This document shows positions 1,401 to 19,431 of a stretch of DNA of 64,000 bases, piece by piece. Origin of the DNA: a virus (taxonomy: Duplodnaviria > Caudoviricetes); the IMG/VR virus record IMGVR_UViG_3300020577_002562, positions 123,210 through 187,209 of that record; one strand, 5' to 3'. Every line of letters starts with the position of its first letter. The stretch's first letter is position 1. The notes below the pieces were generated by a model. It saw only the letters and a list, made by a program, of their open reading frames with translations, was not told the origin of the DNA and did not search any database. Both the position numbers and the translations under genes were made by a program.

Positions 1401-1649
1401 CTAACGTCTTTTCAACTTTGCTGTAGCCTCGCTGCTCATAGACCGAGCCTTGGTTTGAAGAGCCTTCATCCAAGCAACCCCAATTTCCTCAAGCTGTTCG
1501 TCGGTGAACATATAGATTGGCCTGCCATTACCATCTAGCTGTAAAATAGAGGTCGGCACTTTCGGAATGAGGTATTCAGTGGCGTATGTACTATGGACTT
1601 TCACAACAGGCGGTGATTCTTTGATCTGCTTCATACATGCCCTTGTCAA
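1401..1649 (-). CDS. hypothetical protein
   Basis: ORF packed in minus-strand operon. Confidence 0.5.
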   Translation of the reverse strand: MTRACMKQIKESPPVVKVHSTYATEYLIPKVPTSILQLDGNGRPIYMFTDEQLEEIGVAWMKALQTKARSMSSEATAKLKRR

Positions 1650-1931
1650 CTAGACTTGTGGTTGAAGGTGGCGGGTCTGCTCCATCAAGCAGTCAAGACA
1701 CAAACCTGTAGAATTACATCCACCTTCATTAAAGACGACGATAACTCGTGGACATACCCAAAGAGTTTCAGACCAGGTAGTACCATCACCTCTGGTGTGT
1801 GTCTTGTTGTGTAAACCGTGGCAATGTTTGCACGGCGTTCCTCCACCATACTCTGAAACCTCCTCATTTTCATGAACAAACCAGTCTCCACCTTCCCACA
1901 TACTTCCAGAACTGAACGCATGCTTAGTCAT
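1650..1931 (-). CDS. hypothetical Cys-rich protein
   Basis: ORF with upstream AAGG, CxxC motifs. Confidence 0.55.
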   Translation of the reverse strand: MTKHAFSSGSMWEGGDWFVHENEEVSEYGGGTPCKHCHGLHNKTHTRGDGTTWSETLWVCPRVIVVFNEGGCNSTGLCLDCLMEQTRHLQPQV

Positions 1932-1944
1932 CTGTACACCTTAC

Positions 1945-2907
1945 CTACCACTTGATTCCGATGGTTGGACTGTCGTCAACTACTCTACGCCCCTTGTTCA
2001 TGTACTTCATGGCGACTTGTACCTGCTCTCGGTCGATCTTGAATCTCTCAGGCTTGTAGGTCTGCCAGAAGCAAGTGCGCAGACAGCCACGACTAGGGCC
2101 GTAGTCCTCTATGAAATGCTTGATCAACGGTTGTTGCTTGCCGTCCACCACTGTCCGTATACGTGCAGTCTCTTGCGCCAGCTTAGGTGGATTGGAAATC
2201 GGTATGACCTCGTAGATGGTGTCCCATCGCGGGATGTTCAAGCCGACTTGCACGATCCGTCGGATACCAACGATGATGCGAATGCGGCCGCTTCGCGCAT
2301 CTTGCAGTATCTTAGGACGCTGCGTGTTCCGTTCGACCTGACCAGTGAATGCGGCAGCAATGTCGCGGTCTTTCCCAGTCATACGTCGGTATGCCTTGTT
2401 CAGCACGTTGGTCAGCAGCATCGCGTGCTTCACTCGATCCACCGGGATGACGATTGACCGGTCGTGCTTGATAACGTCCTTCAGCGCGTGCTTGACTATC
2501 AGTGTGTTACGTTGCTCGTTGTTGGACAACCAAGTGATAGCACCCGGCCATGTCTTGTGACCGGCGTGCGTAACCCCAGTCTCTACGAACTGAACACTAG
2601 GCACCAGCGTATTGGCTTGCCCCTCGGCACGTACAGGACCGATCACCAACTGAGAGAGTATGATCTTGCCATCTTTGCGATCATACGTCCCCGTCAGTCC
2701 GATCATGTACAACGAGTTCAACTGAGCCACTACTTTGAGGTACTCATCCGCCGCAGTGTCGTGGCAATTATGAACGAGCACACCTTTGTCTGAGTCTGGG
2801 CCATAGACAAAGTAGTTGTGATGCTGCTCCACTCCTATATCGTACACATCTACAGGCGCATCCAGTTTGATATGCTCTACTGATGACACTCTCACTAATT
2901 TTGTCAT
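1945..2907 (-). CDS. split intein C-fragment (47 aa, 2767-2907) + C-terminal half of SF2 (UvsW-like) helicase
   Basis: VYDIGVEQHHNYF...LVHN|C (intein blocks F/G); then CH, GLTGT, VGLNIP, QETARIR helicase motifs. Confidence 0.92.
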   Translation of the reverse strand: MTKLVRVSSVEHIKLDAPVDVYDIGVEQHHNYFVYGPDSDKGVLVHNCHDTAADEYLKVVAQLNSLYMIGLTGTYDRKDGKIILSQLVIGPVRAEGQANTLVPSVQFVETGVTHAGHKTWPGAITWLSNNEQRNTLIVKHALKDVIKHDRSIVIPVDRVKHAMLLTNVLNKAYRRMTGKDRDIAAAFTGQVERNTQRPKILQDARSGRIRIIVGIRRIVQVGLNIPRWDTIYEVIPISNPPKLAQETARIRTVVDGKQQPLIKHFIEDYGPSRGCLRTCFWQTYKPERFKIDREQVQVAMKYMNKGRRVVDDSPTIGIKW

Positions 2908-2937
2908 ACTGGTGAATCATGTATTGGAGTTAAGGGC

Positions 2938-3966
2938 ATGTTACGTCAAGATCATCCGCGATTTCATCAAATGGTGTCCCGACATAGAGCCCTGTGCTCA
3001 GTAAGAAAGATAAAATTCACTGCCAAGATTGTTGACTTGAGCACTACACGTTATTTACATCGTTGTCACTGTGGTCATGCTTGGAAGCAAACTATATCGA
3101 ACTTTGTTGGCCGTACTGGATGTCCTGCTTGTGCGATGCGGCGTTTTCAACTAGCTGGAGCAGCTTCCGCGCGTGGAAAACCTGCGCATACGAGACTAAC
3201 AAAAGGGGAGTTTCTGAAGCGGCTTCCTAAAGGCTATCGTCTAATCGGATCTTACTCAGGACAACGCGAACTAGTCTCATTGAAATGCCCACAAGGTCAC
3301 ATAAGACGAACTACAGCGGACAACGCCCATCGTTATGGCTGTGGTGTATGCTCGGGAGTTGAAGTTTCACTTGACTCCCACAACAAGCAATTGGCTGCTC
3401 TGAATGACCGTGTTCGTTGCCTGCAGTATTTTGGGGCACGCACAGCATCCAGATACCATTGTCTACAGTGTAAGTTTCGCTGGTCTTGCATCCCTACAAA
3501 CATTTTGAAGACTAAACGATGTCATTGTCCGAGCTGTCAACCACCTGGCGTAACTGTCAGATGCGTCAAGCTTGGGCGTCGCAAAGTGCTTGTTCGTGGA
3601 TACGAGCCACAAGCTCTAAACTATTTGATACAAGTGAAGGGGTACAAACCTAACCAGATTCGTACAGAGCTTGAGGGAACTGTCCCAAGAATCAAAGTCA
3701 ATGGGCGACTTCATAAACCCGACTTTTTCATCCCAAGCGATAACCGTCTGGTAGAAGTCAAGTCGATTTTCACTCTCGGACTCAACGGTGAGCTATATTT
3801 CAAAAGAGCATTCCAGAAGTTGAAGACTAACCACGCAAAAGCCCGGGAGGCAGGGTACCGATACAACTTGCTAGTTTTTCTCAAAGACGGAACGCGAGTA
3901 GACATACCTAGTAAGTGGTATCTATTGAGCACTGAACAAATGCGACAGTTACTTCGACAACAATAG
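2938..3966 (+). CDS. putative homing endonuclease, repeated Zn-ribbons + PD-(D/E)XK domain
   Basis: multiple CxC..H..W / CPxC repeats; PDFFIP..N.LVEVKS motif; opposite strand to neighbours; paralog of 7056-7895. Confidence 0.85.
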   Translation: MLRQDHPRFHQMVSRHRALCSVRKIKFTAKIVDLSTTRYLHRCHCGHAWKQTISNFVGRTGCPACAMRRFQLAGAASARGKPAHTRLTKGEFLKRLPKGYRLIGSYSGQRELVSLKCPQGHIRRTTADNAHRYGCGVCSGVEVSLDSHNKQLAALNDRVRCLQYFGARTASRYHCLQCKFRWSCIPTNILKTKRCHCPSCQPPGVTVRCVKLGRRKVLVRGYEPQALNYLIQVKGYKPNQIRTELEGTVPRIKVNGRLHKPDFFIPSDNRLVEVKSIFTLGLNGELYFKRAFQKLKTNHAKAREAGYRYNLLVFLKDGTRVDIPSKWYLLSTEQMRQLLRQQ

Positions 3967-4965
3967 CTCGTCATTTACCGTTAACTCCGATGCCTTCACG
4001 TAATCTTGTCTAGTAACCGACCAAAACTTGTGGTTCGGAGTGCACAGAAGTTCTCTACCATCAATAGTGACGCGCACGAGATGGGTAACAGCTTTCTTTG
4101 TGAAGCTCTCTATGGGTTTGAATTCTCGTTTCCCAGATTGATGATTGAAGCACTCGACAGTCGTCTTGTAGCCGCTTTCTACAATATCACCTAAAGACAT
4201 CAGCCCATTTTTGGTCTTTACTCTATGACCATAGGTGAAGCATTCATCTATGATGATGGTCCCAAAGTGATCCTTGATCTGTTCAAGCTTCTTCTTGCCA
4301 CCAGCAGACAAGAACGTTTGATACGTACACAGCACGATGTCATACTTCAGCATATCCTTGACATCAGTGACTATGCCAGCGATCTTGCGTCCGTTGAACT
4401 TCTCTAGGTCGTCAATGTTGGTTACTGCATCCGCACCTTTGAGCGACAGCATGAACTGGCGCAACCAATCGATCTGGGCCGCAATGATCAGCGTGCGATA
4501 CCCGATCTTGATCGAAGCAGCTATCGCCATCACTGTCTTGCCCGAACGCGGCGGAGACAGTAAGACACCCCGCTTCTTCTTGATGATCGTGCGTACAGGA
4601 TCGCGTTGATTCTTCCAGAGCTTGCCTGTGAATTCGATGGCGTGACGAAACCGCTTGTATTCGGAAGCAGGCTTCTCTCTAGTGACAGTGATCGGCTTAC
4701 CAACTACTTCCTTGACGATTGACGGACGTCCCAACGGTAAACCAAGCATGCCATCTCGTTTGGTCCACAAGTGGTAAGTGCCCCGGAACTCAGGGCATTC
4801 GTCGCAGATGTCACAGTGACGCTCTTCTAGGTACTCACATTTGTTGCATGCTTTCTCGTTGTAGATGCGGATAGTCAGGTGTTTTTTGGCACGCTCTACA
4901 TTCTGCTTCGTAGCTGGCACCCACAGCTTGGAATTACGTACCGCCTCAACTGCTTGAGTCTTCAT
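3949..4965 (-). CDS. N-terminal half of SF2 (UvsW-like) helicase + split intein N-fragment (97 aa, 3952-4242)
   Basis: PPRSGKT Walker A; IIIDE|CFTYGHRV (intein block A); LCTPNHKF (block B TxxH); ASELTVNDEL end. Confidence 0.92.
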   Translation of the reverse strand: MKTQAVEAVRNSKLWVPATKQNVERAKKHLTIRIYNEKACNKCEYLEERHCDICDECPEFRGTYHLWTKRDGMLGLPLGRPSIVKEVVGKPITVTREKPASEYKRFRHAIEFTGKLWKNQRDPVRTIIKKKRGVLLSPPRSGKTVMAIAASIKIGYRTLIIAAQIDWLRQFMLSLKGADAVTNIDDLEKFNGRKIAGIVTDVKDMLKYDIVLCTYQTFLSAGGKKKLEQIKDHFGTIIIDECFTYGHRVKTKNGLMSLGDIVESGYKTTVECFNHQSGKREFKPIESFTKKAVTHLVRVTIDGRELLCTPNHKFWSVTRQDYVKASELTVNDELLLSK

Positions 4966-5251
4966 GTCCTGTATGCCCAGCTACGATTTTCAGTGCTGCG
5001 TTTACCGTCAACGACTCTGCAAGACTCAGCCCATACTGTCGTGGCGCCCAGCTACACATCGTAGCCAACTTGCGCAGCTTGGACTTAGGGCCAAGCACTG
5101 TTCCATTATTTAGTGCAATCAACTCACCGGCGCAGGCTTTCACATGTTTCTCAGCGTATGCTATGGCGCAGGTCATTTGTTCAATCGACGACCTGAGGGG
5201 TTTGCTGGTCTTAGTGATCTTGGTAGGCATGCTTTGAATCTCAACGTCCAT
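4946..5251 (-). CDS. hypothetical protein
   Basis: ATG 5251 with GAGGTG SD; start shortened relative to ORF track. Confidence 0.5.
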   Translation of the reverse strand: MDVEIQSMPTKITKTSKPLRSSIEQMTCAIAYAEKHVKACAGELIALNNGTVLGPKSKLRKLATMCSWAPRQYGLSLAESLTVNAALKIVAGHTGHEDSSS

Positions 5252-5261
5252 TGTCTTCACC

Positions 5262-5615
5262 TCATTCTGCCGCGTGGTCTTTGGTTTCACTGCTCTCAGC
5301 GGCCGTGGTGGCATTAGCTGACACCTCGAACAACCAACCTGAAGAGAGTGTCGCTTGCTTGTGATACTGCAATGACACTTGTCCTCGACGAATCTCTTTG
5401 ATGAAGCGCTTCGATACCAGAAGCGACCCAGCGTGTATCTTCCAATCAACCCCGGGTGTCATGGTCTGCTGGTTGTTAAGCACAGCTACAGCTACCACCT
5501 CTGATGGCAACCGGGTAGTTCGCTTGTTGATGGTCTTGATCTTCAACTCTACAGGTTTGTTTGTCACATCAACCTCAGTAAACGACTTTGTGCAGCCAGC
5601 CCATCGTTCTTCCAC
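5262..5615 (-). CDS. hypothetical protein
   Basis: operon packing. Confidence 0.5.
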   Translation of the reverse strand: MEERWAGCTKSFTEVDVTNKPVELKIKTINKRTTRLPSEVVAVAVLNNQQTMTPGVDWKIHAGSLLVSKRFIKEIRRGQVSLQYHKQATLSSGWLFEVSANATTAAESSETKDHAAE

Positions 5616-5833
5616 AGCATCTTGCGCCCGTTGAATATGGCATCTGCCGTTACTGACTCATCGGAAGTCAGAATCATAAACGCCGCTTCGGCTACTTCAT
5701 TTACAGTTTTGAAGACATAGAGAGCCACCTCTCCTCGGTCAATCACGCGTAAGCATACCACACCATCAGTCGGTGTGGGTACTTCGCGGGCATTGAAGTA
5801 AGTGGCTCGTAGCCGAAGCTGGTCATAACTCAT
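5564..5833 (-). CDS. hypothetical protein
   Basis: ATGA overlap with upstream gene. Confidence 0.5.
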   Translation of the reverse strand: MSYDQLRLRATYFNAREVPTPTDGVVCLRVIDRGEVALYVFKTVNEVAEAAFMILTSDESVTADAIFNGRKMLWKNDGLAAQSRLLRLM

Positions 5834-6150
5834 GTTGGTGGGTTGTTGGTTGCGATGGGTTCCGTTGCTACAGTGGTTGTTCCGTCAGTGGTTTCATCAC
5901 CTGCAGTCGTGCGTCGGTAATCGGGCTCGATTGGACTCGGTGTGGGCGCCTCACGCCACGGTTGTACCTGCCTAGTGGGTGCATACCACTGTTCTCTTTT
6001 GGCAACTGTTTGGTCAAACAGTTCCAAGCACTTGGCTAGATATTCTGCCAGTATGAAGTCCGGGGTGTTGGACCCGTTCTCTCTAGAGTGTTGATTGATC
6101 AGTGCGCGAAGCTCTTGTTCAAAGGTCGGTCGTTCAACTGTGTCTGTCAT
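5830..6150 (-). CDS. hypothetical protein
   Basis: AGGAG SD; ENGSNTPDFILAEYL motif seen in small phage proteins. Confidence 0.65.
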   Translation of the reverse strand: MTDTVERPTFEQELRALINQHSRENGSNTPDFILAEYLAKCLELFDQTVAKREQWYAPTRQVQPWREAPTPSPIEPDYRRTTAGDETTDGTTTVATEPIATNNPPT

Positions 6151-6289
6151 ACCATTCTCCTAATTGAGTTAGGACTCAAAGAAAATACCCTACCACCGCC
6201 AACAAGACCAGAGTGACTAATACTCCGATCCATATCCGTTCAGTCGTTCGCTTGATGCCCACTCACATCTCCTGCACTTACTGTCTAGA

Positions 6290-6544
6290 TCAACGCAACC
6301 GAAGGGTCGCGTACTTGTTACTGCGGTTATCCGAGTAACGGAGGTACATATGCAGTCTGCGATGAGACTGCTGGATCTTCTGGCACAACAAGCGAGCGGC
6401 GCAGCTTATGTGGGTGATTGATCGGAGTACCGATCCGTCACCTGCAGCTGGATACGCTGCTCGCCACAGACAACGTCCCAGCTTACGTCTGTTTGACCAG
6501 ACGAATCGGTACCGTCGCTTATTTCCCTTGAGCTTGACTTTCAC
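6290..6544 (-). CDS. hypothetical basic protein
   Basis: GTGA overlap with upstream gene. Confidence 0.45.
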   Translation of the reverse strand: MKVKLKGNKRRYRFVWSNRRKLGRCLWRAAYPAAGDGSVLRSITHISCAARLLCQKIQQSHRRLHMYLRYSDNRSNKYATLRLR

Positions 6545-7055: not shown

Positions 7056-7895
7056 ATGCCTCCAGTTTTGCGTTCACAAGTTGAAGTTACTCGTCTACTA
7101 AATAGTAACAATCCAACTATACGATCTATATCCGAGTATAGAGGATGTAGAAGTGAAGGACAATTCGAGTGCTTAGAGTGTAAGCATGTTTGGTCAGCTC
7201 AATGGAGACGCATAATACAAGGCGCAACAAAATGTCCTCGATGCGTATCTGTAAGACTTGGAGGCAAAAACAAGAAAACGCACCAAGTCTATTGTGAAGA
7301 ACTTGCGTTGGTCGATCCTTCTATCCAGCCTCTAGAAAAATACGTCAATAGCTACACGGCTATTTTGCATAGACATGAGTGTGGGCATGAGTGGAGACTA
7401 ATGCCGTTAAACTCACTCCGCGGTAGAGGCTGTCCTAAGTGTAAGCTTCGTTTGCGCACCGTCAAATTGGGGGCCCGAAAGGTTAACGTGCGTGGATATG
7501 AAGCCATAGCTTTAAAGTGGCTTGTTCGTAACAAGAAAGTCAAACCGTCTGAAATACAAACACACAACGAGAAAACGGTACCTAATTTTCTATATCACCA
7601 CAGAGGTAGGCGAACATATTTCCCAGACTTTTACATACCCAAAACGAATTGTATAGTCGAAGTCAAGTCTTTATCAACCGTAGGCATTCTTGGTAACTTC
7701 TTTAATCTTAAACCTAGAACTCTGTTCTCGCTCACACAAGCCAAGGCTAAAGCTGTACTGAACGCAGGCTATCGTTTTAGACTATTGATCATGGGCAGCG
7801 ATGGCAATAGAATACCGACTCCGAAAGGATGGCTTCGTATGACACACAAAGAATTTTGCGCGTCTATCGGACCTGAGCATACCAGCAAACATTAA
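7056..7895 (+). CDS. putative homing endonuclease, Zn-ribbons + PD-(D/E)XK domain
   Basis: CxxCxHxW/CPxC repeats; VKLGARKVNVRGYE and PDFYIP..N.IVEVKS shared with 2938-3966. Confidence 0.85.
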   Translation: MPPVLRSQVEVTRLLNSNNPTIRSISEYRGCRSEGQFECLECKHVWSAQWRRIIQGATKCPRCVSVRLGGKNKKTHQVYCEELALVDPSIQPLEKYVNSYTAILHRHECGHEWRLMPLNSLRGRGCPKCKLRLRTVKLGARKVNVRGYEAIALKWLVRNKKVKPSEIQTHNEKTVPNFLYHHRGRRTYFPDFYIPKTNCIVEVKSLSTVGILGNFFNLKPRTLFSLTQAKAKAVLNAGYRFRLLIMGSDGNRIPTPKGWLRMTHKEFCASIGPEHTSKH

Positions 7896-9978: not shown

Positions 9979-10764
9979 TCAACCGCCCGCAATCACCGAG
10001 TTGCGAATACGATTGCTGATGTACTGCATTACGTACATGTACTTGTCAGGTCCAGGGCCGTAGTTCTTGATGTACTTGTGAAACTTGTGTACTAGATGAA
10101 GGGGCTGCAAAGCAACCACCATGCTCGGCGGCAATTCGATAGGAACAGTCAGCAGGTGGTTCTTCTCTTCACTGTCAAACACAGGCTCAAACAGGTTGTC
10201 CAGCGTGGACCACACAATCATGTAGTTGCCTTGTACGTACACCAACCACATATTGATGCGCTTCAAATGCGACGACAAGATGAAAGACGTGCTGCCTGGA
10301 GCCGGCCCAGCGTACACCATGCTCACACTTCTAGGGATCGGAGGCAACTGTGAAAACACCCGAGCAGCCACGCGTTTGCCGTAGTTTGAGGTATCTTCTC
10401 CCCACGGCTCCTGATTCAGTTGCAACAGATTGGTGGTGCAGATGCGAGCACACGACTCATCATTGGTGGAGGACCATACCGTGATACTGCTGTTCCGTTG
10501 CGGAATCAGTGTATGCAACGGTGCAGTGCCCCAGGCAGTATAAGCATATGACTCGAAGCGAAAATCGCTAACCATCTTGAATAGCATCTCAGAGACAGCA
10601 GTGTCACCTGAAATCTCGAACATCGAGTGCTGCGTGTGCTTGACGTTCCCGATCGTGAAGGCTGCGGTATCTTGTCTTACGATATAGCGCCACAACCAAT
10701 CCACACGGTCGTTGCCCTCTTTGTTGGTCGAACCGCGCAGAATGAATGCTCCCGTGAAATTCAT
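9979..10764 (-). CDS. hypothetical protein
   Basis: 261 aa ORF coupled to polymerase (ATGA overlap). Confidence 0.65.
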   Translation of the reverse strand: MNFTGAFILRGSTNKEGNDRVDWLWRYIVRQDTAAFTIGNVKHTQHSMFEISGDTAVSEMLFKMVSDFRFESYAYTAWGTAPLHTLIPQRNSSITVWSSTNDESCARICTTNLLQLNQEPWGEDTSNYGKRVAARVFSQLPPIPRSVSMVYAGPAPGSTSFILSSHLKRINMWLVYVQGNYMIVWSTLDNLFEPVFDSEEKNHLLTVPIELPPSMVVALQPLHLVHKFHKYIKNYGPGPDKYMYVMQYISNRIRNSVIAGG

Positions 10765-13700
10765 GATGTTACCTTCGGCATGATAGGGTAGTGTTTGTCC
10801 AAGTAGCTTTTCATACTTGGGGTCTGAGAGTACACACGCTTGTAACAGGCTTCAACTTCTACAGCCGGTAGCCGCTTCGCTTGCTCCTCTAATGCGGAGC
10901 GCACAATCTTCTTCATCGAGGAGTCTGACCAATCCCACTTGATCAGAGTAGAGCTATCAGATCCAAGCTCAAATTCTACCTCGAGCGGTGTAGTGAACTT
11001 GACCCCAAAGTGCTCGGCGTAATACTCCATGCAACCAATGGTCGCGCACCATTGCAGAATCTGGATAGCCGACAGATACAGTTCATACGGGCTGTCCGCT
11101 TCCAGAGCATCATGCACCATCAGTTCGATGTTGCCAAGGTCTACGCTACCATCTTCAAGCTCCCACTTCATCGGCACATGCTTGAAGCCAAACTTCTTGC
11201 AGAAGCGTTCCAGGTGGTAGCCAAACAAGTAGGCCGCGGTGTGCCCGATGTCACTGGCTACGCTTTGGATCGGGGAGTTTGCGCCGCGACGCTCCACGGC
11301 AGACTCGAACTGTTCTATGCCGAACAGGTGAGCATACATATGACGCCGACGACCGATCAACGACACTACAAAGTTGTGGAGCAGAGGCATCTTCTTCGCA
11401 GCTTCCAACCATGAGCTTGCTCTGGGGAATCGCTTGAAGAACTGCTTGAGCAGCTTCTCGATGAACTCCTTGGTCTTGTTCACTTGACCGGCGATTGAAC
11501 GAGCACTACGTCCATAGATTGCACCGAAGACGATACTCTTCACCGCGTCCCGATATGCAGCAATGTTGGAGGGCAGCCCTAGCTTATTCTTTATCTTGTC
11601 CATCACGGGCTTGATCTTGTCCATCGAGATGGAAAAGAAGAAGCTCACATTCTGAACGTGAACGTCGCCTTCCGTCAGCATACGTTCCAGATACTTCGGG
11701 TCTTCAGTCTTGCGAAACTTGCGGCGAAGCTCTCGACCAAAGTCAAACAGCTTCGACAGGATGGTGTCTTGTGATGTGATGGCCCACATTCGCACTTCGT
11801 GGGCGTTGTAGTCAACCTTGATCTTCAATCGGCCAAAGACGGTGGCGAAGGTTCGCTTCATGGTCTTGGCAAACTTGCCGCGACTCGGCAGATTCTGGAA
11901 GTTGGGCTCGTATGAGTTGCTTCGACCTGAGACTACATCAACAAAACCAAATGAAGGGAATAGCCGCTGCGTGGCTTTGAAGTCCGGGTTGGTTCGGAAG
12001 TTGAACAACCACGGCTTGACGTAGGTAGACAGAAGCTTGTCTACCTCACTAATGCTAGTGTAGTGCTTGACCTCTTCTACATCAGCATAGTGTTTGCAAA
12101 ATGCCTTGTCTATGGAGGGGCCACTCTTACCGAATGTCAACGGTTCGAGCTTCAACACGTCGAAGAACAACATCGCCTTGTGCTCTGGCTTGTTGATCTT
12201 GAACATCCACGCATTGTACTGTGACCCGTACATTGACGTGGCAGGAGCTCCGGTCAACTTGACCAGACGTTCATTGGCTTTACGTACAGCCTTTGTCTTG
12301 TATAGGGTTGAGCGTGTTTCATTGACTATGCTCTGCAACGGTCCATTGTTCCGACGCAGGTAGTGCAACCACTCCAAGTCAACCGCCACGCCACGGCCTT
12401 CCATCGTGGCGTGTACGTTGATCATGTTGTTGAGTTGCGTCACCATCAACCGCTGATAGTCCTTACGGTAGGACATATCGAGCACACGGCTGGTCCAGCT
12501 ACGAGTATGTCGGGTATGCTTGGCTCTTAACTGCTGTTGCTCATGTATGGCGAACGGAGCCTGGACATCCATTGCGGCATAATTGAGCACCTTCTTGGTC
12601 AACTTGACCGATCCGATGGTAGCACGTTCCGCCTTAGAGAATTCGGCCCTACGATACCAGTCGCATCCATAGTTGACACACACCTGCATCAAACCGTACT
12701 GTGGCGTGCCGTACTTCTTGAGCGTCTTGACGTTTTCGTCAAGCAGAAACTCCCCCGCCATCAAATCCCAGACTCGACGCTTAAACAGGAAGAGCTTCAG
12801 ATTCAAGCGCGACACGATCATGTCGAACTTGATGTTGTGTCCTATCGCATACTCGTCATACTCTGTGTCCATTGGATCTGGACCAGAATCAAACAGTTCA
12901 TACAAGTCCTGCTCGATACTAGCTAGATCGCTTCTGGAGAACTTGCTGTCTTTGTGGTATAGAGGGACAACATAGCCACGCTTAGAGTCGAACGCGAACT
13001 GAAGTAACAGCAGTCTGTTGTCAACTGCACGGTTGAGGTTATCTGTCTCAGTATCGAACGCCCACACTTTACGTCGCATCAATGCTGAGTGTAGCTTGCG
13101 CCACTTGCGCATTGTGTCGATCAGCACTGGTCTTGGCTTGACCTCAATCTTGTAAAGCAGGTCTCCGTGCAATGCCGATGCTACGTTACGTGATTGATAC
13201 CCCAACAGATTGGCGTGATCTAGTGCCGCGTCATCTACATCGCCTTCGCCACCATCATCTAGTTGCTTCTTCGAGTACGCCTTGTGAAGCGACACTGTGC
13301 TGAACCACAGCATCTTGGTCTTTGGATGCTTGTGGGGCCAACCACGATACACTTCAGGGTCTTCTATCCACGGGAGTAATGCTCGTGCAGCGTTGTCGCC
13401 AATCACCAGCACCTTGTGCGGCTTTGCTTTCTCTATGAATGCGTTGACCCGTTCAGCCGCCGCTGTGTCGCATAGATCTTGCGTTTCGCGAGATAGATCG
13501 TAGGTCTTGACAAAGTTGAAGTTTATGAAGGCAAATGCTGGTACCGTCAGTTCGTGGCCCGCGTTTCTGACTTGATCCACAGCCATCTTGTAGGCATTGG
13601 AAAAGCTAGTGCTGAACGGACCCGACAAAAGTCGTCCACTCTCAAGATCCTGAGTGTCTACGTGCTCAATGACTACCAAAATGCGGTGCTTGCTGATCTT

Positions 13701-13808
13701 CCAGCTAGGATCGACCGCAATGGATAGGTTGTATGGTTCTCGCTCTTTCAGTTCGGGAACTCGCAGCAAAGAGCGCGGCAAGTCCGATTGAAACTTCATG
13801 TAGCGCAT
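10761..13808 (-). CDS. family A DNA polymerase with 3'-5' exonuclease and probable N-terminal UDG-like domain
   Basis: FDTET, GHNIKFD, YAAMD exonuclease motifs; PNFQNLP, DYNAHEVR, RDAVKSIVFGAIYG, MVHDA polymerase motifs. Confidence 0.95.
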   Translation of the reverse strand: MRYMKFQSDLPRSLLRVPELKEREPYNLSIAVDPSWKISKHRILVVIEHVDTQDLESGRLLSGPFSTSFSNAYKMAVDQVRNAGHELTVPAFAFINFNFVKTYDLSRETQDLCDTAAAERVNAFIEKAKPHKVLVIGDNAARALLPWIEDPEVYRGWPHKHPKTKMLWFSTVSLHKAYSKKQLDDGGEGDVDDAALDHANLLGYQSRNVASALHGDLLYKIEVKPRPVLIDTMRKWRKLHSALMRRKVWAFDTETDNLNRAVDNRLLLLQFAFDSKRGYVVPLYHKDSKFSRSDLASIEQDLYELFDSGPDPMDTEYDEYAIGHNIKFDMIVSRLNLKLFLFKRRVWDLMAGEFLLDENVKTLKKYGTPQYGLMQVCVNYGCDWYRRAEFSKAERATIGSVKLTKKVLNYAAMDVQAPFAIHEQQQLRAKHTRHTRSWTSRVLDMSYRKDYQRLMVTQLNNMINVHATMEGRGVAVDLEWLHYLRRNNGPLQSIVNETRSTLYKTKAVRKANERLVKLTGAPATSMYGSQYNAWMFKINKPEHKAMLFFDVLKLEPLTFGKSGPSIDKAFCKHYADVEEVKHYTSISEVDKLLSTYVKPWLFNFRTNPDFKATQRLFPSFGFVDVVSGRSNSYEPNFQNLPSRGKFAKTMKRTFATVFGRLKIKVDYNAHEVRMWAITSQDTILSKLFDFGRELRRKFRKTEDPKYLERMLTEGDVHVQNVSFFFSISMDKIKPVMDKIKNKLGLPSNIAAYRDAVKSIVFGAIYGRSARSIAGQVNKTKEFIEKLLKQFFKRFPRASSWLEAAKKMPLLHNFVVSLIGRRRHMYAHLFGIEQFESAVERRGANSPIQSVASDIGHTAAYLFGYHLERFCKKFGFKHVPMKWELEDGSVDLGNIELMVHDALEADSPYELYLSAIQILQWCATIGCMEYYAEHFGVKFTTPLEVEFELGSDSSTLIKWDWSDSSMKKIVRSALEEQAKRLPAVEVEACYKRVYSQTPSMKSYLDKHYPIMPKVTS

Positions 13809-14357: not shown

Positions 14358-17300
14358 TCACTTTCCTATGGTTCGGAGTTCATCGATGCGCTTCGAGGTC
14401 TTCAGCGCGTTAGTGATGGTATAGCTCTTAGTCAGTTCAACAAGTTTCCTCTTTGCGTCTTGGCGGTTGGCACAGAACAGGAACATCTCATGCTCGGCTT
14501 CTTCCCATGCAATGCCGGGTACGATGATGCGACGAATGGCAGACCAAGATTGCTTGTGCGCCGTCTGATCAATGCACAAGTACACATCACCGTTGTCCAC
14601 CATCACATATGGCCTAGCCTCCTTTGCGCCTACTGGCTTGATGGCGGCTCGCAGAAAGTCCTTCAACACCGTCGGTGTCAGCACCTTCATAAAATTGTCC
14701 AGATCCTTGGCACGCTTCCAAAGCTCCAGAGTCTCTTGTAGCCGTTTCAGATGCGCCTCGTTGATTTCCAACTTGGCTTGTGCCAAATCAAGCCACTTAG
14801 CAAGATGACGCCAGGTCTTCAGTTCTGTGTAGTAGTACGGACGGTTCGGGACGAAGCCTAGTCTCCTCAACTCTGTCACTGGTACGTCCGGATCTTCTGC
14901 GTCTACGCCCAGAGCAATCCACTCGTTGTAGTTGATGGCGAACACGCTGAACTGCTGGTTCACCGTCTTGTCAACGTTTGGCACCGGCTTGTTTGGAATG
15001 ACCTTTGGAAGTTCCTTCTTACTACGACCTGGGTCCACAGCGCGAGTCGAATCTGCACCAGCAATGCGTGCCATTGTCTCGCGCACGTTCACTGTCTTAC
15101 GTTGAACCACGAACGCAGTGTCCTTGTTGTATGCTTGCACCTTTCCATTGATGCGAACACGTACACTGCGGTCACTCATACCAGTGCATTCACCCTCGCC
15201 ATCTTCGGTGTGAATGATTAAGCCAGTTGGATCGAACTCCTTCTTACGCCTGTTCTCACTCTCGTAGGTCGTGAACTTGACCAGGCCAAGCTCTTCCATG
15301 CCATATAGATCGATGCCGGGAATGTACGGCACCTTCTTCAACATGGCACTGCCAGGCAACACACCGCCGTCCTCAAGCTTATACGGTTTGGAGAACCGCG
15401 TCTTGTCTTTCAGGAAGTCTTCATACGCTTCTTCTTCCAAGTTACGATACTGTTGGTACGTATCGATGTAGTTTGCAAGACTATTCTCCCCACCGTCAGT
15501 AAAGGAGTTCGACGCCGAAATGTTGGTCAATGACATTGACACCGGAGGGAGAGAAGGAAGATTCTGGAAGCGCGGGTCTTCCGATTCATACCACTTCAAG
15601 GTCTCTACGAGTTTCGCAACCATGCGACTCGTCTTGGTAACGTCAATCGAGTTGTTGACGATCACCATGTCAATGAAGATTTCCTTGCGGAACTCGCTTG
15701 CCACATTTGGTCGAAGCACACGAGCTTCGCCTTGCTCCATAGCACCCCAGTTCCACACGGCTTGGATTCGGATGAGCCGCGAACAGAACTGTAGGTTACG
15801 CCCGGTGTTCAACGAATCTTCAACGCCGACCAGTGCCCAGATCTCCGGGTTCTTCTCGAACTCGTCAAGATACTGGTCCTTGGTCATCTCACCACCGCTT
15901 GCACGGTACAGCAATATGTGCTTCTTCAACTCAGGTGGAGCATACTTGTAGACTGCGTTGGCACCGATATGGTTTTTGGCGAAGATCAGTACCTTACCAG
16001 GGTATTGTTTGATCTGTGCTTGGTGCTTGGTGATCAGTTCGTGAACCTTCTTGATCTTGGGACTGATGGCTTTCCGCTCATCAGTGATGGCAAACCCCGC
16101 TTCATCTGCCATCGGATCACATAGGAATTCTTCCAGACGGGCGATGTGGATAGATCCGTCGAGGAAATTCTCCAACTCGTCTTCTTCATCTTCCGTCATC
16201 TTACCCGTCTCAAGCGCCTTCTTGAGTTTGGGATTCTTCTCGGCGATTTCTTCTCGGATAGCCTCGATCTGTTCTTCAACCAAGCGGTTATAAATGATCT
16301 GAACATCCTGGTCCATCGGTACAACGAAATACTCGTCTGTGACCTTCGGCAACAGTGCTTTCCACTCACGACGCTTGATCGTGATGACGTTGGAGTGTTG
16401 CTCTTGTCTGCGACGAATGGCACGACCAGCATTCGGAATCCAAGCTCCACGGCCCTTGTTGGGATCTTTGAACTCCTCATTGAATCGCTTGAGGTCACCA
16501 AACACAGTGGGCTCGATTTGAGCGAACAACGCCACCACGTCTTCGTTAGTGTCTGGCAAGTATGTGCCCGACATTTGGCGAATGACTTTGATGGTACTAG
16601 CTAGTTGCATAGCCATGCGGGTACGGACGGAGTACACATTCTTCAGCTTGTGCACTTCATCTACCCACAAACCATCCCACTCGAACTCGCGTAGAAACTC
16701 CAGGTTGTTGCTGGTGGTAACACGCGATGTTCCGTAACCATAGTCTTCTGACCTACCACTGAGAAACTCGAAGCCTGTGATGCAGATGGTGTTTGGTGGT
16801 GCAGACTGAATCAACTCACGCAGCTTGTCATAGCCCCAGCTATTGACTGTGACAGTCGAGATGGCGATGATGTTGACTCGACCCCCAAATACCTTGTTCG
16901 CATCGATAAAGTAGTTCTTCATCAAGTCCGCGGGACACATGATGAGCGGACGCTTAACTCTACCGACCTTCATGTTCAGGGCAATATCTATCAGGGCAAC
17001 AATGGTTTTACCACCACCAGCCTGAACATCGATCACTGCAGCAGGTGGGAGATTCTTAAGCCACGAGAATATCTTGCCCTGATGAGCGAGAAGTGTTGCG
17101 TTCTTTACGAACGGCACCTTCGGCATCGTGAAAGTTTCAGCCGTTTCCAACTGTGGATTGACATAAACGGCACGTAGCTTCTCGTCTTGTGCTCGAATCT
17201 CGGCCTTCTTTGGGGCGTACTTGGAAATGACAACGCAGATGGCGATAGCCAGAGTAGCTCCGTGAACACCACAGGCTTCACAGATGTCGCTCAGACGCTT

Positions 17301-19007
17301 CTCGTAGTTCTTGGCCAGGTAATCAGCGGCCTCTGCCAGCAGACGTAGAGGCAGCACTGGGCTTTTATCTGTGATGTCTGCCAGCACGAATCCGTACCGT
17401 GCAGCCCACTCCTCTGAGAAATACTTGTATAGGGCTGGATTCGAGTCTTCAGACAGTGTACGGCCCATGCGGGCCAAGTCTGCATTGATGATGTTCAACA
17501 GCGTCTTGGTCGAACCCTCATTCAACGCAGCAATCACGCCGGTACGCGAGTCTGGCAGGAACCATTCGGTGTACTTAAGGCCTGCATGTTGCGTCAACTT
17601 GTAGCCGATTGCCGCCAGCGCTTTGCCCAAATGACTGAACGCGGTTCCTGCTGCACCGCGTTGTGGATCAGACTCTAGCAACTGACGGATGTGGGTCGCC
17701 GTGGCTGGACGGCAAGAGTTCAGATCATCAACCTTGAGTGTTCCGCTGTCGGTGGTGTAGGTGAACTTGCCTTGGTACCAGTCAGTGAACACTGGCTCAT
17801 TTCGACCCGCACGCTTACGCAGCATCGTGGCTTGACCAGCAGCGTTCAAGCCCTCTCTGTAGTGGGTCTTCTCTGGCGTGATCACATCGACGGCCGCAAA
17901 CTCGCCGCCTTCTGTTGTAGAACCTAGTTCAATCTCGTTCTCAACGCGCACAGCATTGTCTATTCCGACTTCTGGGATGAATCGGAAGTGACCACGTTGC
18001 GTTACCAGCAGACCATCATCATTGGTGCGCTTGACGGGAACGAGCCGTGAATCTTTGGTAGCACGAGCAATGGTGCTGATAGGGTTCAGAGTCTCTGTAT
18101 AGTTGGTGGCGCCACCTTCACCTTCATCAGTCTCGTCGCCTTTGTCGTCTTTCAGAGTGATGTTGATCAGACTCTGCAGGAACGCCGAGAAGTATTGAAG
18201 CCGAACCTTCGACAGTTCAGTCTGAGTGACGTATTCAACGACTTCAGTCGGGAAGTCATAGACGCCCGCAACATACACTTCCGCCAAGCGGAAGACGTGC
18301 TGACGTGCGTAGCCTACGAACTCACCGTCAGGCAGCTTCATCAATTGGTTGAATGGCACACCATCTTTGGTAGCACGCCCCATGAAGCGCACGCTCCGTG
18401 TTGCTTCAAGAAGCATCTCAGCCGGATCTTGAGAGTCCTCGTCTACCAGTTCAAGCTTATCCCAATCCGGCTTGAATCCCTTGTGGTTCTTGAAGACTCG
18501 CGCGGCTGGGATCTCAAAGTCGATTGGACCTGGTTCACTGAGGGCTGGATGAATCAGCCGAAGACCCTGCATGAACGCTTTGAGCGCGGGGACGTCACCC
18601 CCAAGACGACGACTCAGCAGTTCAGGAGTGCGTTGGATTCTGGTCAGTTGACCCAACGGAACTGTAGCTTGAACACCCTCGTCGGTACGCTTGAGTCTGA
18701 TGCCTGCAGCTGCCTTCTTGACGATTGGAAACTGCAACGCATCTTGAAAGCCGATGAGGAAGTCGTCATCTCGAAGATCCAGATTGAGCTTGGATGTTGC
18801 TGTCGCCGCCACAAAGGCATGCGTGAACATCGCGGTGAAGATGATGACGCCTTTGAAGTCTTCGACCAGAATTGAATACTGGTGGTAGTCCGTCAGGTCC
18901 ACTTTCGGTACGTCACTGAACCGACCTGCCAACTCTCGGACCGGCGTGTACTCGGCAAGGGTAGCAGCAGACGCGGCTGCGGCAGCCGTGGTTGTAAGTT
19001 CAAACAT
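14358..19007 (-). CDS. large SNF2/SF2-type helicase (about 1550 aa), possibly virion-associated
   Basis: QAGGGKT, WVDEVH, MSGT, NTGRNLQ, QGEARVLR motifs; start moved to MFELTTT, which overlaps the upstream stop. Confidence 0.85.
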   Translation of the reverse strand: MFELTTTAAAAASAATLAEYTPVRELAGRFSDVPKVDLTDYHQYSILVEDFKGVIIFTAMFTHAFVAATATSKLNLDLRDDDFLIGFQDALQFPIVKKAAAGIRLKRTDEGVQATVPLGQLTRIQRTPELLSRRLGGDVPALKAFMQGLRLIHPALSEPGPIDFEIPAARVFKNHKGFKPDWDKLELVDEDSQDPAEMLLEATRSVRFMGRATKDGVPFNQLMKLPDGEFVGYARQHVFRLAEVYVAGVYDFPTEVVEYVTQTELSKVRLQYFSAFLQSLINITLKDDKGDETDEGEGGATNYTETLNPISTIARATKDSRLVPVKRTNDDGLLVTQRGHFRFIPEVGIDNAVRVENEIELGSTTEGGEFAAVDVITPEKTHYREGLNAAGQATMLRKRAGRNEPVFTDWYQGKFTYTTDSGTLKVDDLNSCRPATATHIRQLLESDPQRGAAGTAFSHLGKALAAIGYKLTQHAGLKYTEWFLPDSRTGVIAALNEGSTKTLLNIINADLARMGRTLSEDSNPALYKYFSEEWAARYGFVLADITDKSPVLPLRLLAEAADYLAKNYEKRLSDICEACGVHGATLAIAICVVISKYAPKKAEIRAQDEKLRAVYVNPQLETAETFTMPKVPFVKNATLLAHQGKIFSWLKNLPPAAVIDVQAGGGKTIVALIDIALNMKVGRVKRPLIMCPADLMKNYFIDANKVFGGRVNIIAISTVTVNSWGYDKLRELIQSAPPNTICITGFEFLSGRSEDYGYGTSRVTTSNNLEFLREFEWDGLWVDEVHKLKNVYSVRTRMAMQLASTIKVIRQMSGTYLPDTNEDVVALFAQIEPTVFGDLKRFNEEFKDPNKGRGAWIPNAGRAIRRRQEQHSNVITIKRREWKALLPKVTDEYFVVPMDQDVQIIYNRLVEEQIEAIREEIAEKNPKLKKALETGKMTEDEEDELENFLDGSIHIARLEEFLCDPMADEAGFAITDERKAISPKIKKVHELITKHQAQIKQYPGKVLIFAKNHIGANAVYKYAPPELKKHILLYRASGGEMTKDQYLDEFEKNPEIWALVGVEDSLNTGRNLQFCSRLIRIQAVWNWGAMEQGEARVLRPNVASEFRKEIFIDMVIVNNSIDVTKTSRMVAKLVETLKWYESEDPRFQNLPSLPPVSMSLTNISASNSFTDGGENSLANYIDTYQQYRNLEEEAYEDFLKDKTRFSKPYKLEDGGVLPGSAMLKKVPYIPGIDLYGMEELGLVKFTTYESENRRKKEFDPTGLIIHTEDGEGECTGMSDRSVRVRINGKVQAYNKDTAFVVQRKTVNVRETMARIAGADSTRAVDPGRSKKELPKVIPNKPVPNVDKTVNQQFSVFAINYNEWIALGVDAEDPDVPVTELRRLGFVPNRPYYYTELKTWRHLAKWLDLAQAKLEINEAHLKRLQETLELWKRAKDLDNFMKVLTPTVLKDFLRAAIKPVGAKEARPYVMVDNGDVYLCIDQTAHKQSWSAIRRIIVPGIAWEEAEHEMFLFCANRQDAKRKLVELTKSYTITNALKTSKRIDELRTIGK

Positions 19008-19431
19008 TGGACATCTCTGCATAGTGGGACCAAACACTCGGAGCACCGAGCCCCGCACTTGGATAACGATTCAGCAGTTCCTTGGCCAATAGACGAGCCA
19101 GTTCGCGGTCTGGTTCTCTCTTGAACCATTCCTCAGTGTATTCAGTTGCTGCCAGCTTTGAGGCTTCAGCATCATGGAAACCGCTAAGACCATCTAGGAT
19201 TCGGTTCAGCACGTCACGACGATCTGCGTCAGTCAATGCAGGCCGACGCAATTCGTCAATGACTGAGCGTAGCTCGACGATTCTCTCCTGCAGCATTCGC
19301 TTGGTTTCCGTGGATCGTCCGGCTGTCAGCACGGGTGTAGATGCTCCCGTGTTTGGCAACCGATCAATCTGATCGTCTATCTCCGCAAGAATGCGGTCCA
19401 TGCGTGCGACTGTTTGATTAAGGTGTTTCAT
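19000..19431 (-). CDS. hypothetical protein
   Basis: operon packing. Confidence 0.65.
   Translation of the reverse strand: MKHLNQTVARMDRILAEIDDQIDRLPNTGASTPVLTAGRSTETKRMLQERIVELRSVIDELRRPALTDADRRDVLNRILDGLSGFHDAEASKLAATEYTEEWFKREPDRELARLLAKELLNRYPSAGLGAPSVWSHYAEMSNV

Follow-up and report, generated by a model that had tools for sequence, protein, structure and literature searches.

A phage helicase gene interrupted within motif II by a predicted split intein and an opposite-strand nuclease gene

Within a 64,000-nucleotide (nt) stretch of DNA (the window; positions 123,210 to 187,209 of the IMG/VR virus record IMGVR_UViG_3300020577_002562), which forms the last 64 kb of a single contig of 187,209 bp from an uncultured phage, we analyzed a locus where a helicase is encoded in two pieces, each fused to one half of a predicted split intein. 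Gene 1 (3949-4965, minus strand, 338 amino acids (aa)) encodes the N-terminal half of the helicase (residues 1-241), which ends with IIIDE and is followed by the N-terminal intein half (IntN). This tail of gene 1 reads CFTYGH...LLCTPNH...NDELLLSK before the stop, and Cys1 of the intein is residue 242. Gene 2 (1945-2907, minus strand, 320 aa) begins with the C-terminal intein half (IntC) and continues with the C-terminal half of the helicase; its product reads MTKLVRVSS...VYDIGVEQHHNYF...GVLVHN, followed by CHDTAADEYLKVV. The gap between both genes is occupied by an open reading frame (ORF) for a nuclease of 342 aa on the plus strand (2938-3966). The coordinates of all features are given in Table 1. 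A preliminary description of this DNA had placed a 97-aa IntN at the end of gene 1 (IIIDE/CFTYGH...TPNH...ELLLSK and stop; here and below, a slash between residues marks the junction of extein and intein, or of the two exteins in the joined product) and a 47-aa IntC ending in VHN/CHD at the start of gene 2, both of which match the sequence exactly. It had also described an opposite-strand nuclease gene overlapping gene 1 by 18 bp and starting 30 bp from gene 2, with which our coordinates agree.

To determine what the two gene products would yield together, we joined residues 1-241 of gene 1 and residues 48-320 of gene 2 in silico (241 + 273), which resulted in a protein of 514 aa. The order of a helicase is kept after joining, with Walker A (PPRSGKTV), motif II (DE/CH), motif III (LTGT) and the helicase C domain following one another. 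In comparison with the unsplit helicases of the phages BcepSauron (Burkholderia), phiRSL1 (Ralstonia) and Ep032 (Erwinia), the joined product had no gap at the junction. The claim of the preliminary description that joining restores DE+CH and a 514-aa helicase of superfamily 2 (SF2) is thus borne out in silico, as the DExH box is colinear with that of the unsplit homologues. Motif II reads DE[I/V]H in the unsplit relatives and DE/CH in the joined product; the sole change at the junction is the +1 residue (I/V to C), which fits an intein-bearing allele, this being the residue that an intein requires. Among unsplit relatives in the protein database, P0018 (521 aa, 58% identical over the N-terminal half) is the closest; it reads VVIDEVHDTAADAY at the junction, compared to IIIDE/CHDTAADEY at our locus, or VVIDEVHDTAADAYLRV compared to IIIDE/CHDTAADEYLKV over a longer stretch. 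The N-extein matched Pfam ResIII (E 1.1e-9) and PHROG DNA helicase families. The C-extein matched the DNA helicase family phrog_16 (E 5.4e-23) and, weakly, Pfam Helicase_C (E 0.0028) and archaeal XPB/Rad25 (E 0.005). Judged by these matches, the host protein is an SF2 DExH helicase of the ResIII or XPB/Rad25-like type, with a weak affinity to XPB.

The split-intein assignment of the preliminary description held up when both halves were compared to hidden Markov models. Pfam Intein_splicing matched IntN over profile positions 10-94 of 155 (E 1.5e-5) and IntC over positions 121-155 of 155 (E 4.8e-3). PT-HINT behaved alike, with IntC covering its positions 95-136 of 137. Among single sequences in the PDB, the best match of IntN alone was the NrdJ-1 intein (E 3.7e-4), and block F of IntC aligned to the IntC chains of Npu and Ssp DnaE. 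We also built family profiles of both halves from ten homologous split pairs, for which a Cys at +1 was among the selection criteria, and these profiles matched dozens of solved inteins. The IntN profile spanned residues 1 to about 100 of them, the matches including a BIL domain (4.6e-13), NrdJ-1 (5e-10), gp41-1 (3.7e-7) and the DnaX and DnaB mini-inteins (about 1e-9). The IntC profile spanned the last 30-35 residues, with matches to the C-terminus of the Spl DnaX mini-intein (9e-9), to NrdJ-1 (2e-5) and to Npu DnaE IntC (3e-5). According to these alignment ranges, the split point lies between blocks B and F, which is the canonical point of endonuclease insertion.

The class-1 residues are complete in the gene 1/gene 2 pair, comprising Cys1, TPNH (IntN residues 68-71), the terminal HN and Cys+1. 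No variation among the ten split pairs occurs at Cys1, the block-B His or the terminal Asn, and almost none at the block-B Thr; the penultimate His of IntC is retained only in three pairs from jumbo phages. Both intein halves match Hint and intein models independently and occur in the right order, and the layout recurs in at least four other phage lineages, so that, on sequence evidence, the architecture of this locus is far beyond chance.

The opposite-strand ORF matched Pfam DUF4379, a treble-clef zinc finger, and DUF7487. It is composed of three zinc fingers (about residues 35-200) and a C-terminal PD-(D/E)XK domain (residues 204-337). In 18 nuclease homologues, the residues G221, E223, P261, D262, E273, V274 and K275 as well as the finger cysteines are invariant. 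An AlphaFold model of the protein (mean predicted local distance difference test score 80.5, exceeding 90 over residues 210-340) displays three finger modules, each a beta-hairpin and a helix, and a C-terminal alpha/beta domain. In a VIA structural search with this model, TnsA (1t0f) ranked top (Z 9.1, root-mean-square deviation 2.4 Å, 106 residues aligned), followed by Vsr (Z 8.0) and the homing endonuclease I-Bth0305I (Z 6.3). Nearly all other top rows were PD-(D/E)XK enzymes, e.g., Hjc, FAN1 and I-Ssp6803I. A Foldseek search of the model against the PDB gave no match reaching E 0.001. The nuclease of the preliminary description, zinc-binding and of the PD-(D/E)XK type, is thus recovered by Pfam, the invariant residues, the AlphaFold model and the VIA fold matches alike. 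With TnsA of Tn7, Vsr and I-Bth0305I it has the fold and the acidic/lysine motif in common at an identity of 11-14%. The DNA-binding part differs, being made up of the three treble-clef zinc fingers, and the presumed role would be homing rather than transposition, as for TnsA, or mismatch repair, as for Vsr. According to the model, the protein is a modular zinc-finger and TnsA-like PD-(D/E)XK nuclease with an intact active site, whose activity is predicted. This under-described family (DUF7487) is a candidate family of homing endonucleases. It is rare in cultured phages, where we found 7 records, all from one jumbo-phage group.

A tblastn search of the whole contig with the nuclease and the intein halves as queries revealed that the phage has two paralogues of the nuclease. 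One of these is located within another split intein. The other (279 aa, 33% identical) lies at 7056-7895 on the plus strand of the window, antisense between two minus-strand genes and without association to an intein.

Table 1 Features of the helicase locus and of a second fractured gene in the same phage. Positions refer to the window, except for those preceded by L004, a separate stretch of the same contig.
Feature	Position	Strand	Remarks
N-extein, 241 aa	4243-4965	-	Cys-rich N-terminal region; Walker A PPRSGKTV; IIIDE provides DE of motif II
IntN, 97 aa	3952-4242	-	Cys1 in CFTYGH (block A); TPNH (block B); stop codon at 3949-3951
Nuclease gene, 342 aa	2938-3966	+	three treble-clef zinc fingers and PD-(D/E)XK domain
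Candidate catalytic residues of the nuclease	E223 3604-3606; D262 3721-3723; E273 3754-3756; K275 3760-3762	+	motif E...PD...ExK
Convergent 3'-3' overlap, 18 bp	3949-3966	both	nuclease gene and last IntN codons with stop
Divergent spacer, 30 bp	2908-2937	n/a	separates the ATGs of gene 2 and the nuclease gene
IntC, 47 aa	2767-2907	-	block F VYDIGVEQHHNYF; block G VLVHN
C-extein, 273 aa and stop	1945-2766	-	+1 Cys and motif II His (CHDTAADEY); motif III LTGT; RecA2/helicase-C domain
Second locus, N-part and IntN	L004:5397-6392	-	terminase-like
Second locus, nuclease paralogue	L004:4465-5355	-	same strand; overlaps the IntC start by 20 bp
Second locus, C-part	L004:2121-4484	-	IntC at start, and a contiguous intein (Pfam Intein_splicing 1.5e-21)

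We then compared the locus to those of cultured phages. A search of the 3-kb region at DNA level against the phage collection found nothing, and only searches at protein level were informative. By tblastn, the helicase was found in about 100 jumbo-phage records, mostly in an unsplit form. Three cultured lineages possess a split helicase together with an antisense nuclease gene. In Yersinia phage fHe-Yen9-02 (OR620964; genes 061c/060/059c) and Vibrio phage vB_VcorM_GR11A (MT366761; genes 6/5/4), the helicase is split at DE/CH as well, while in the Dickeya phages JA11 and JA33 the split intein is located at a second helicase site, RKD/C, after motif III. All belong to the same helicase family and have a homologous split intein, with IntN being 34-52% identical to that of our locus; fHe-Yen9-02 and JA33 also carry the same nuclease family. 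Protein identity to the cultured-phage loci is only 30-50%. In every case, the nuclease gene and IntN overlap at their 3' ends, by 18 bp in the phage studied here, by 64 bp in fHe-Yen9-02, by 35 bp in GR11A and by 69 bp in JA33. At none of the cultured-phage loci has an intein been annotated. In JA33, the residues at the second site (L003:1042-4148) read TATPKRKD/CFTAGH... on the N-terminal and ...VLVHN/CLHYR on the C-terminal side, and the antisense nuclease ORF of 375 aa (L003:1953-3080) is not in the GenBank annotation.

The Vibrio phages provide a direct comparison of both allelic states. In GR7B, a relative of GR11A that infects the same host strain, the helicase is unsplit with DEIH in motif II, and the cassette is absent. 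The two phages differ by an insertion of 1317 bp in GR11A, which consists of IntN, nuclease gene and IntC; they thus represent a filled and an empty allele. As the flanking DNA is 68-75% identical, the insertion difference is not very recent. The nuclease in this cassette (GR11A gene 5; L002:2764-3579) has kept the zinc-finger N-terminal region, with FEFHGDCWHG replacing PD...EVK, and has no Pfam match. Read from the FEFHGDCWHG motif, its catalytic domain appears Vsr-like, which suggests that catalytic domains have been swapped on a shared DNA-binding module. The helicases of GR11A (L002:3545-5884) and GR7B (L007:494-3367) additionally contain a large contiguous intein at the P-loop (PPRSGK/CVVEG...VHN/TVMAT), so that the helicase of GR11A has two inteins, one in cis and one split.

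Among metagenomes, we found 43 orthologue loci from JGI data sets, which are mostly unsplit and free of inteins. One of them (L076:5001-6905; Ga0075125_10000588) encodes an orthologous helicase with a contiguous mini-intein of 149 aa at the same DE/CH site, which may represent the unsplit ancestor state of the intein studied here. When this mini-intein and the split halves were aligned by MAFFT, block B of IntN was placed onto block F, probably due to the resemblance of the two halves of the Hint fold. Another locus (L064) has a split intein at the second helicase site, RKD/C. In IMG/VR, many more distant SF2 helicases have a homologous intein at the identical DE/C point, some of them contiguous, and about a dozen are split and accompanied by a same-strand nuclease with NUMOD3 and a TnsA-like domain. 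Loci of this type (e.g., L028, L032, L036, L040 and L044) share the insertion point (VDE/CF... and ...N/CH), a homologous split intein and a TnsA-like PD-(D/E)XK nuclease with our locus. They differ in that the nuclease is encoded on the same strand and bears NUMOD3 instead of zinc fingers, that IntC has 35 aa with a penultimate Ser or Lys and not His, and that the helicases are about 25% identical to ours. A further IMG/VR locus (L039:3883-5848) has a DE/C split intein with a gap of 59 bp and no nuclease gene between the halves, and may be a stage after loss of the nuclease.

Within this family, the intein is mostly more conserved than its host protein. IntN is 52-95% identical in five of six relatives, compared to 31-87% for the N-extein; in GR11A this is reversed (34% compared to 51%). 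Likewise, IntC is 44-48% identical and the C-extein 35-40%. One close relative (P0017), at 89% identity, keeps IntN at 95% identity. This pattern is compatible with the intein being under purifying selection, with the cassette having spread horizontally, or with a combination of the two.

So far, our findings point with good confidence to a fractured helicase gene in which an intein resides inside motif II and has been broken by a homing-endonuclease gene on the opposite strand, with splicing and homing as the predicted activities. In such a scenario, an intein would have invaded the gene of this helicase, a member of the replication/repair module, exactly within motif II, and the antisense homing-endonuclease gene would then have split this intein into two genes. 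The helicase halves would be translated separately, and the 97-aa IntN and the 47-aa IntC would associate into one Hint fold. Trans-splicing would then proceed by means of Cys1, the block-B Thr and His, the terminal His-Asn and the +1 Cys, upon which the intein pieces would be released and ...IIIDE ligated to CHDTAADEY... to give the active 514-aa helicase. The nuclease, whose expression would rely on separate signals on the opposite strand, would most likely cut the intein-free DE[I/V]H helicase alleles of related phages that co-infect the cell, and recombinational repair would copy the entire IntN-nuclease-IntC cassette into the cut alleles. The intein would make the insertion harmless to the phage. 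We regard the fractured helicase gene as real and very probably functional.

Several points weigh against this interpretation. The sequences establish the anatomy of the locus, its homologies and catalytic residues, the colinearity of the joined product, the presence or absence of the cassette among relatives and the recurrence of the layout. Splicing, cleavage, the target site and the pattern of transcription are predictions, and for splicing and cleavage this also applies to every relative. When used as single sequences, IntN and IntC score 25.3 and 17.1 bits, respectively, against Pfam Intein_splicing, which is below the gathering threshold of 35.8, as is to be expected since each is only half a domain. 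The higher conservation of the intein could result from recent horizontal spread and not from selection for splicing. A scan of 1500-6500 for promoters and terminators detected three sites each, no more than expected from shuffled sequence. Among these counts is a sigma-70-like candidate site at 2883-2910 on the plus strand, just upstream of the nuclease gene.

A further point is the translation of gene 2. Its start lies about 1 kb past the stop of gene 1, and we found no match to a Shine-Dalgarno (SD) sequence, a caveat that had already been raised in the preliminary description. ATG 2907 is the only possible start, because an in-frame TGA lies four codons upstream. Gene 1 likewise is without an SD match, while the nuclease gene has its own ribosome-binding signal (GGAG, 8 nt before the ATG). 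In the genome, 106 of the 208 ORFs of at least 100 aa have an SD match of at least 4 nt, compared to 18% at random positions. The region from -30 to +30 of gene 2 (-8.0 kcal/mol) is less stably folded than that of 71% of the genome's genes, and IntC can be aligned with its relatives from the very first residues, showing that the start position is conserved. As about half of the ORFs lack an SD match, the structure is weak and the start is conserved, its absence is weak evidence against translation of gene 2. The simplest template for translation of gene 2 would be a long transcript of the minus strand, running through the nuclease gene in the antisense direction.

We weighed other explanations for the locus. 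An RNA element joining the halves, such as a group I or group II intron, was rejected, as the nuclease is antisense, the Hint evidence is strong and Rfam gave no match in the region at E values up to 1. The helicase halves may also be held together non-covalently, with the intein halves acting as a dimerization module and without ligation. Fragmented NrdA of phage Aeh1 is reported to assemble and work without splicing (PMC3045599), and the ligated helicase is a predicted product. However, mere association needs neither Cys1 nor the block-B His nor the terminal Asn, all of which are invariant across ten diverged pairs, and a Hint domain of 144 aa wedged inside the catalytic DExH box would disrupt motif II. 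We thus regard assembly without splicing as very unlikely. Even less probable, to a degree where it can hardly be entertained, is that the locus is a decaying, non-functional remnant, in which the insertion killed the helicase and the ORFs are open by chance or recency. The missing SD sequence of gene 2 and the predicted nature of trans-splicing would be compatible with decay, and the phage has other helicases, e.g., the SNF2-like protein of 1566 aa at 14358-19058. Yet all three ORFs are intact with every helicase and intein motif retained, the split state persists at 31-56% protein identity in viable cultured phages, and the close relative P0017 has an IntN that is 95% identical.

A more serious alternative concerns the nuclease alone: the split intein may function while the nuclease is not, or never was, the homing engine of the cassette, being inactive, directed at another target or engaged chiefly in competition between phages (marker exclusion) instead of its own copying. 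The target site is a prediction, paralogues of the nuclease occur at non-intein sites (at 7056-7895 as well as in PaBG and GR7B), the IMG/VR locus with the 59-bp gap keeps a split intein without a nuclease gene, and GR11A has a different, apparently Vsr-like catalytic domain in the same place. Against this, the catalytic residues are invariant, the 1317-bp cassette that is present in GR11A and absent from GR7B includes the nuclease gene, and a nuclease gene is located between the intein halves in every jumbo-phage case found. We consider a cassette without nuclease-driven homing unlikely, and favor the fractured gene with a homing nuclease.

Fractured genes of environmental phages with split inteins, including gp41-1, NrdJ-1 and IMPDH-1, have been described before (Dassa et al. 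2009, NAR 37:2560; PMC2677866). In these cases, the nuclease gene shares its strand with both gene halves, and its 3' end often overlaps the start of the gene that follows. The nucleases are of the GIY-YIG or Vsr-like kind, and the host genes named are gp41, IMPDH, DnaE, NrdA, NrdJ, DNA ligase and terminase. The helicase locus has in common with them the succession of IntN with stop, free-standing endonuclease and IntC-extein, the canonical split point and a phage gene of DNA metabolism as host. It differs in the antisense orientation of the nuclease gene, in the zinc-finger and TnsA-like/DUF7487 nuclease, in the SF2 DExH helicase as host and in the insertion site. Our searches of the literature on jumbo-phage split inteins, opposite-strand endonucleases and the named phages yielded no paper on this arrangement or on these helicase inteins; the PaBG paper mentions terminase inteins only. 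The suggestion of the preliminary description that the pair may be new therefore stands as far as publications are concerned, but the allele itself is not confined to this phage, as it occurs without annotation in jumbo phages in GenBank, in phrog_16259 and phrog_9690 and in many IMG/VR contigs. Thus, the principle of the fractured gene is known, whereas orientation, nuclease family, host and site, as read from the sequences, differ from published cases, which makes this locus a genuine, if modest, departure from the published layout.

Since the nuclease gene is antisense, the translational coupling of nuclease and IntC that characterizes same-strand fractured genes is lost. A gene-fracturing nuclease would hence need to use neither the strand nor the translation signals of its host gene. 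Tentatively, the backwards orientation might itself be a selected design: the read-through RNA of the operon, being antisense to the nuclease mRNA, would throttle a potentially toxic nuclease, and the conserved 3'-3' overlap (18-69 bp in four lineages) would lock nuclease and intein to each other, so that deletion of either would damage the other. We hold this to be possible, but rather doubtful. If true, loci of this kind would make up a distinct and stable class of symbiosis between intein and nuclease, in which expression follows a logic of its own, and gene 2 would have to initiate alone, without same-strand translational coupling. The homologous loci in cultured phages make splicing, homing and the antisense effect directly testable. 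If splicing occurs as predicted, a naturally split intein (97/47 aa, Cys1/Cys+1, native junction DE/CH) would be added to the pool available for protein ligation, along with several diverged and possibly orthogonal homologues, and two jumbo-phage gene pairs labeled "hypothetical protein" or "DNA repair helicase" in GenBank would each be one helicase.

Apart from the helicase locus, the window encodes a PolA polymerase, the SNF2-like helicase, topoisomerase II subunits, RtcB and a head-tail connector. No intein match was obtained in PolA (10761-13808) or in the SNF2-like helicase. A second fractured gene of this phage, which is terminase-like and adjoins the portal gene, is situated about 6-10 kb before the window (L004:2121-6392; contig positions about 112,620-116,891). 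Here, a paralogue of the nuclease lies between the intein halves on the same strand as the host gene (Table 1), in line with the same-strand arrangement of the fractured genes described by Dassa et al. With the helicase locus being antisense, a single phage carries both orientations of one nuclease family within split inteins.

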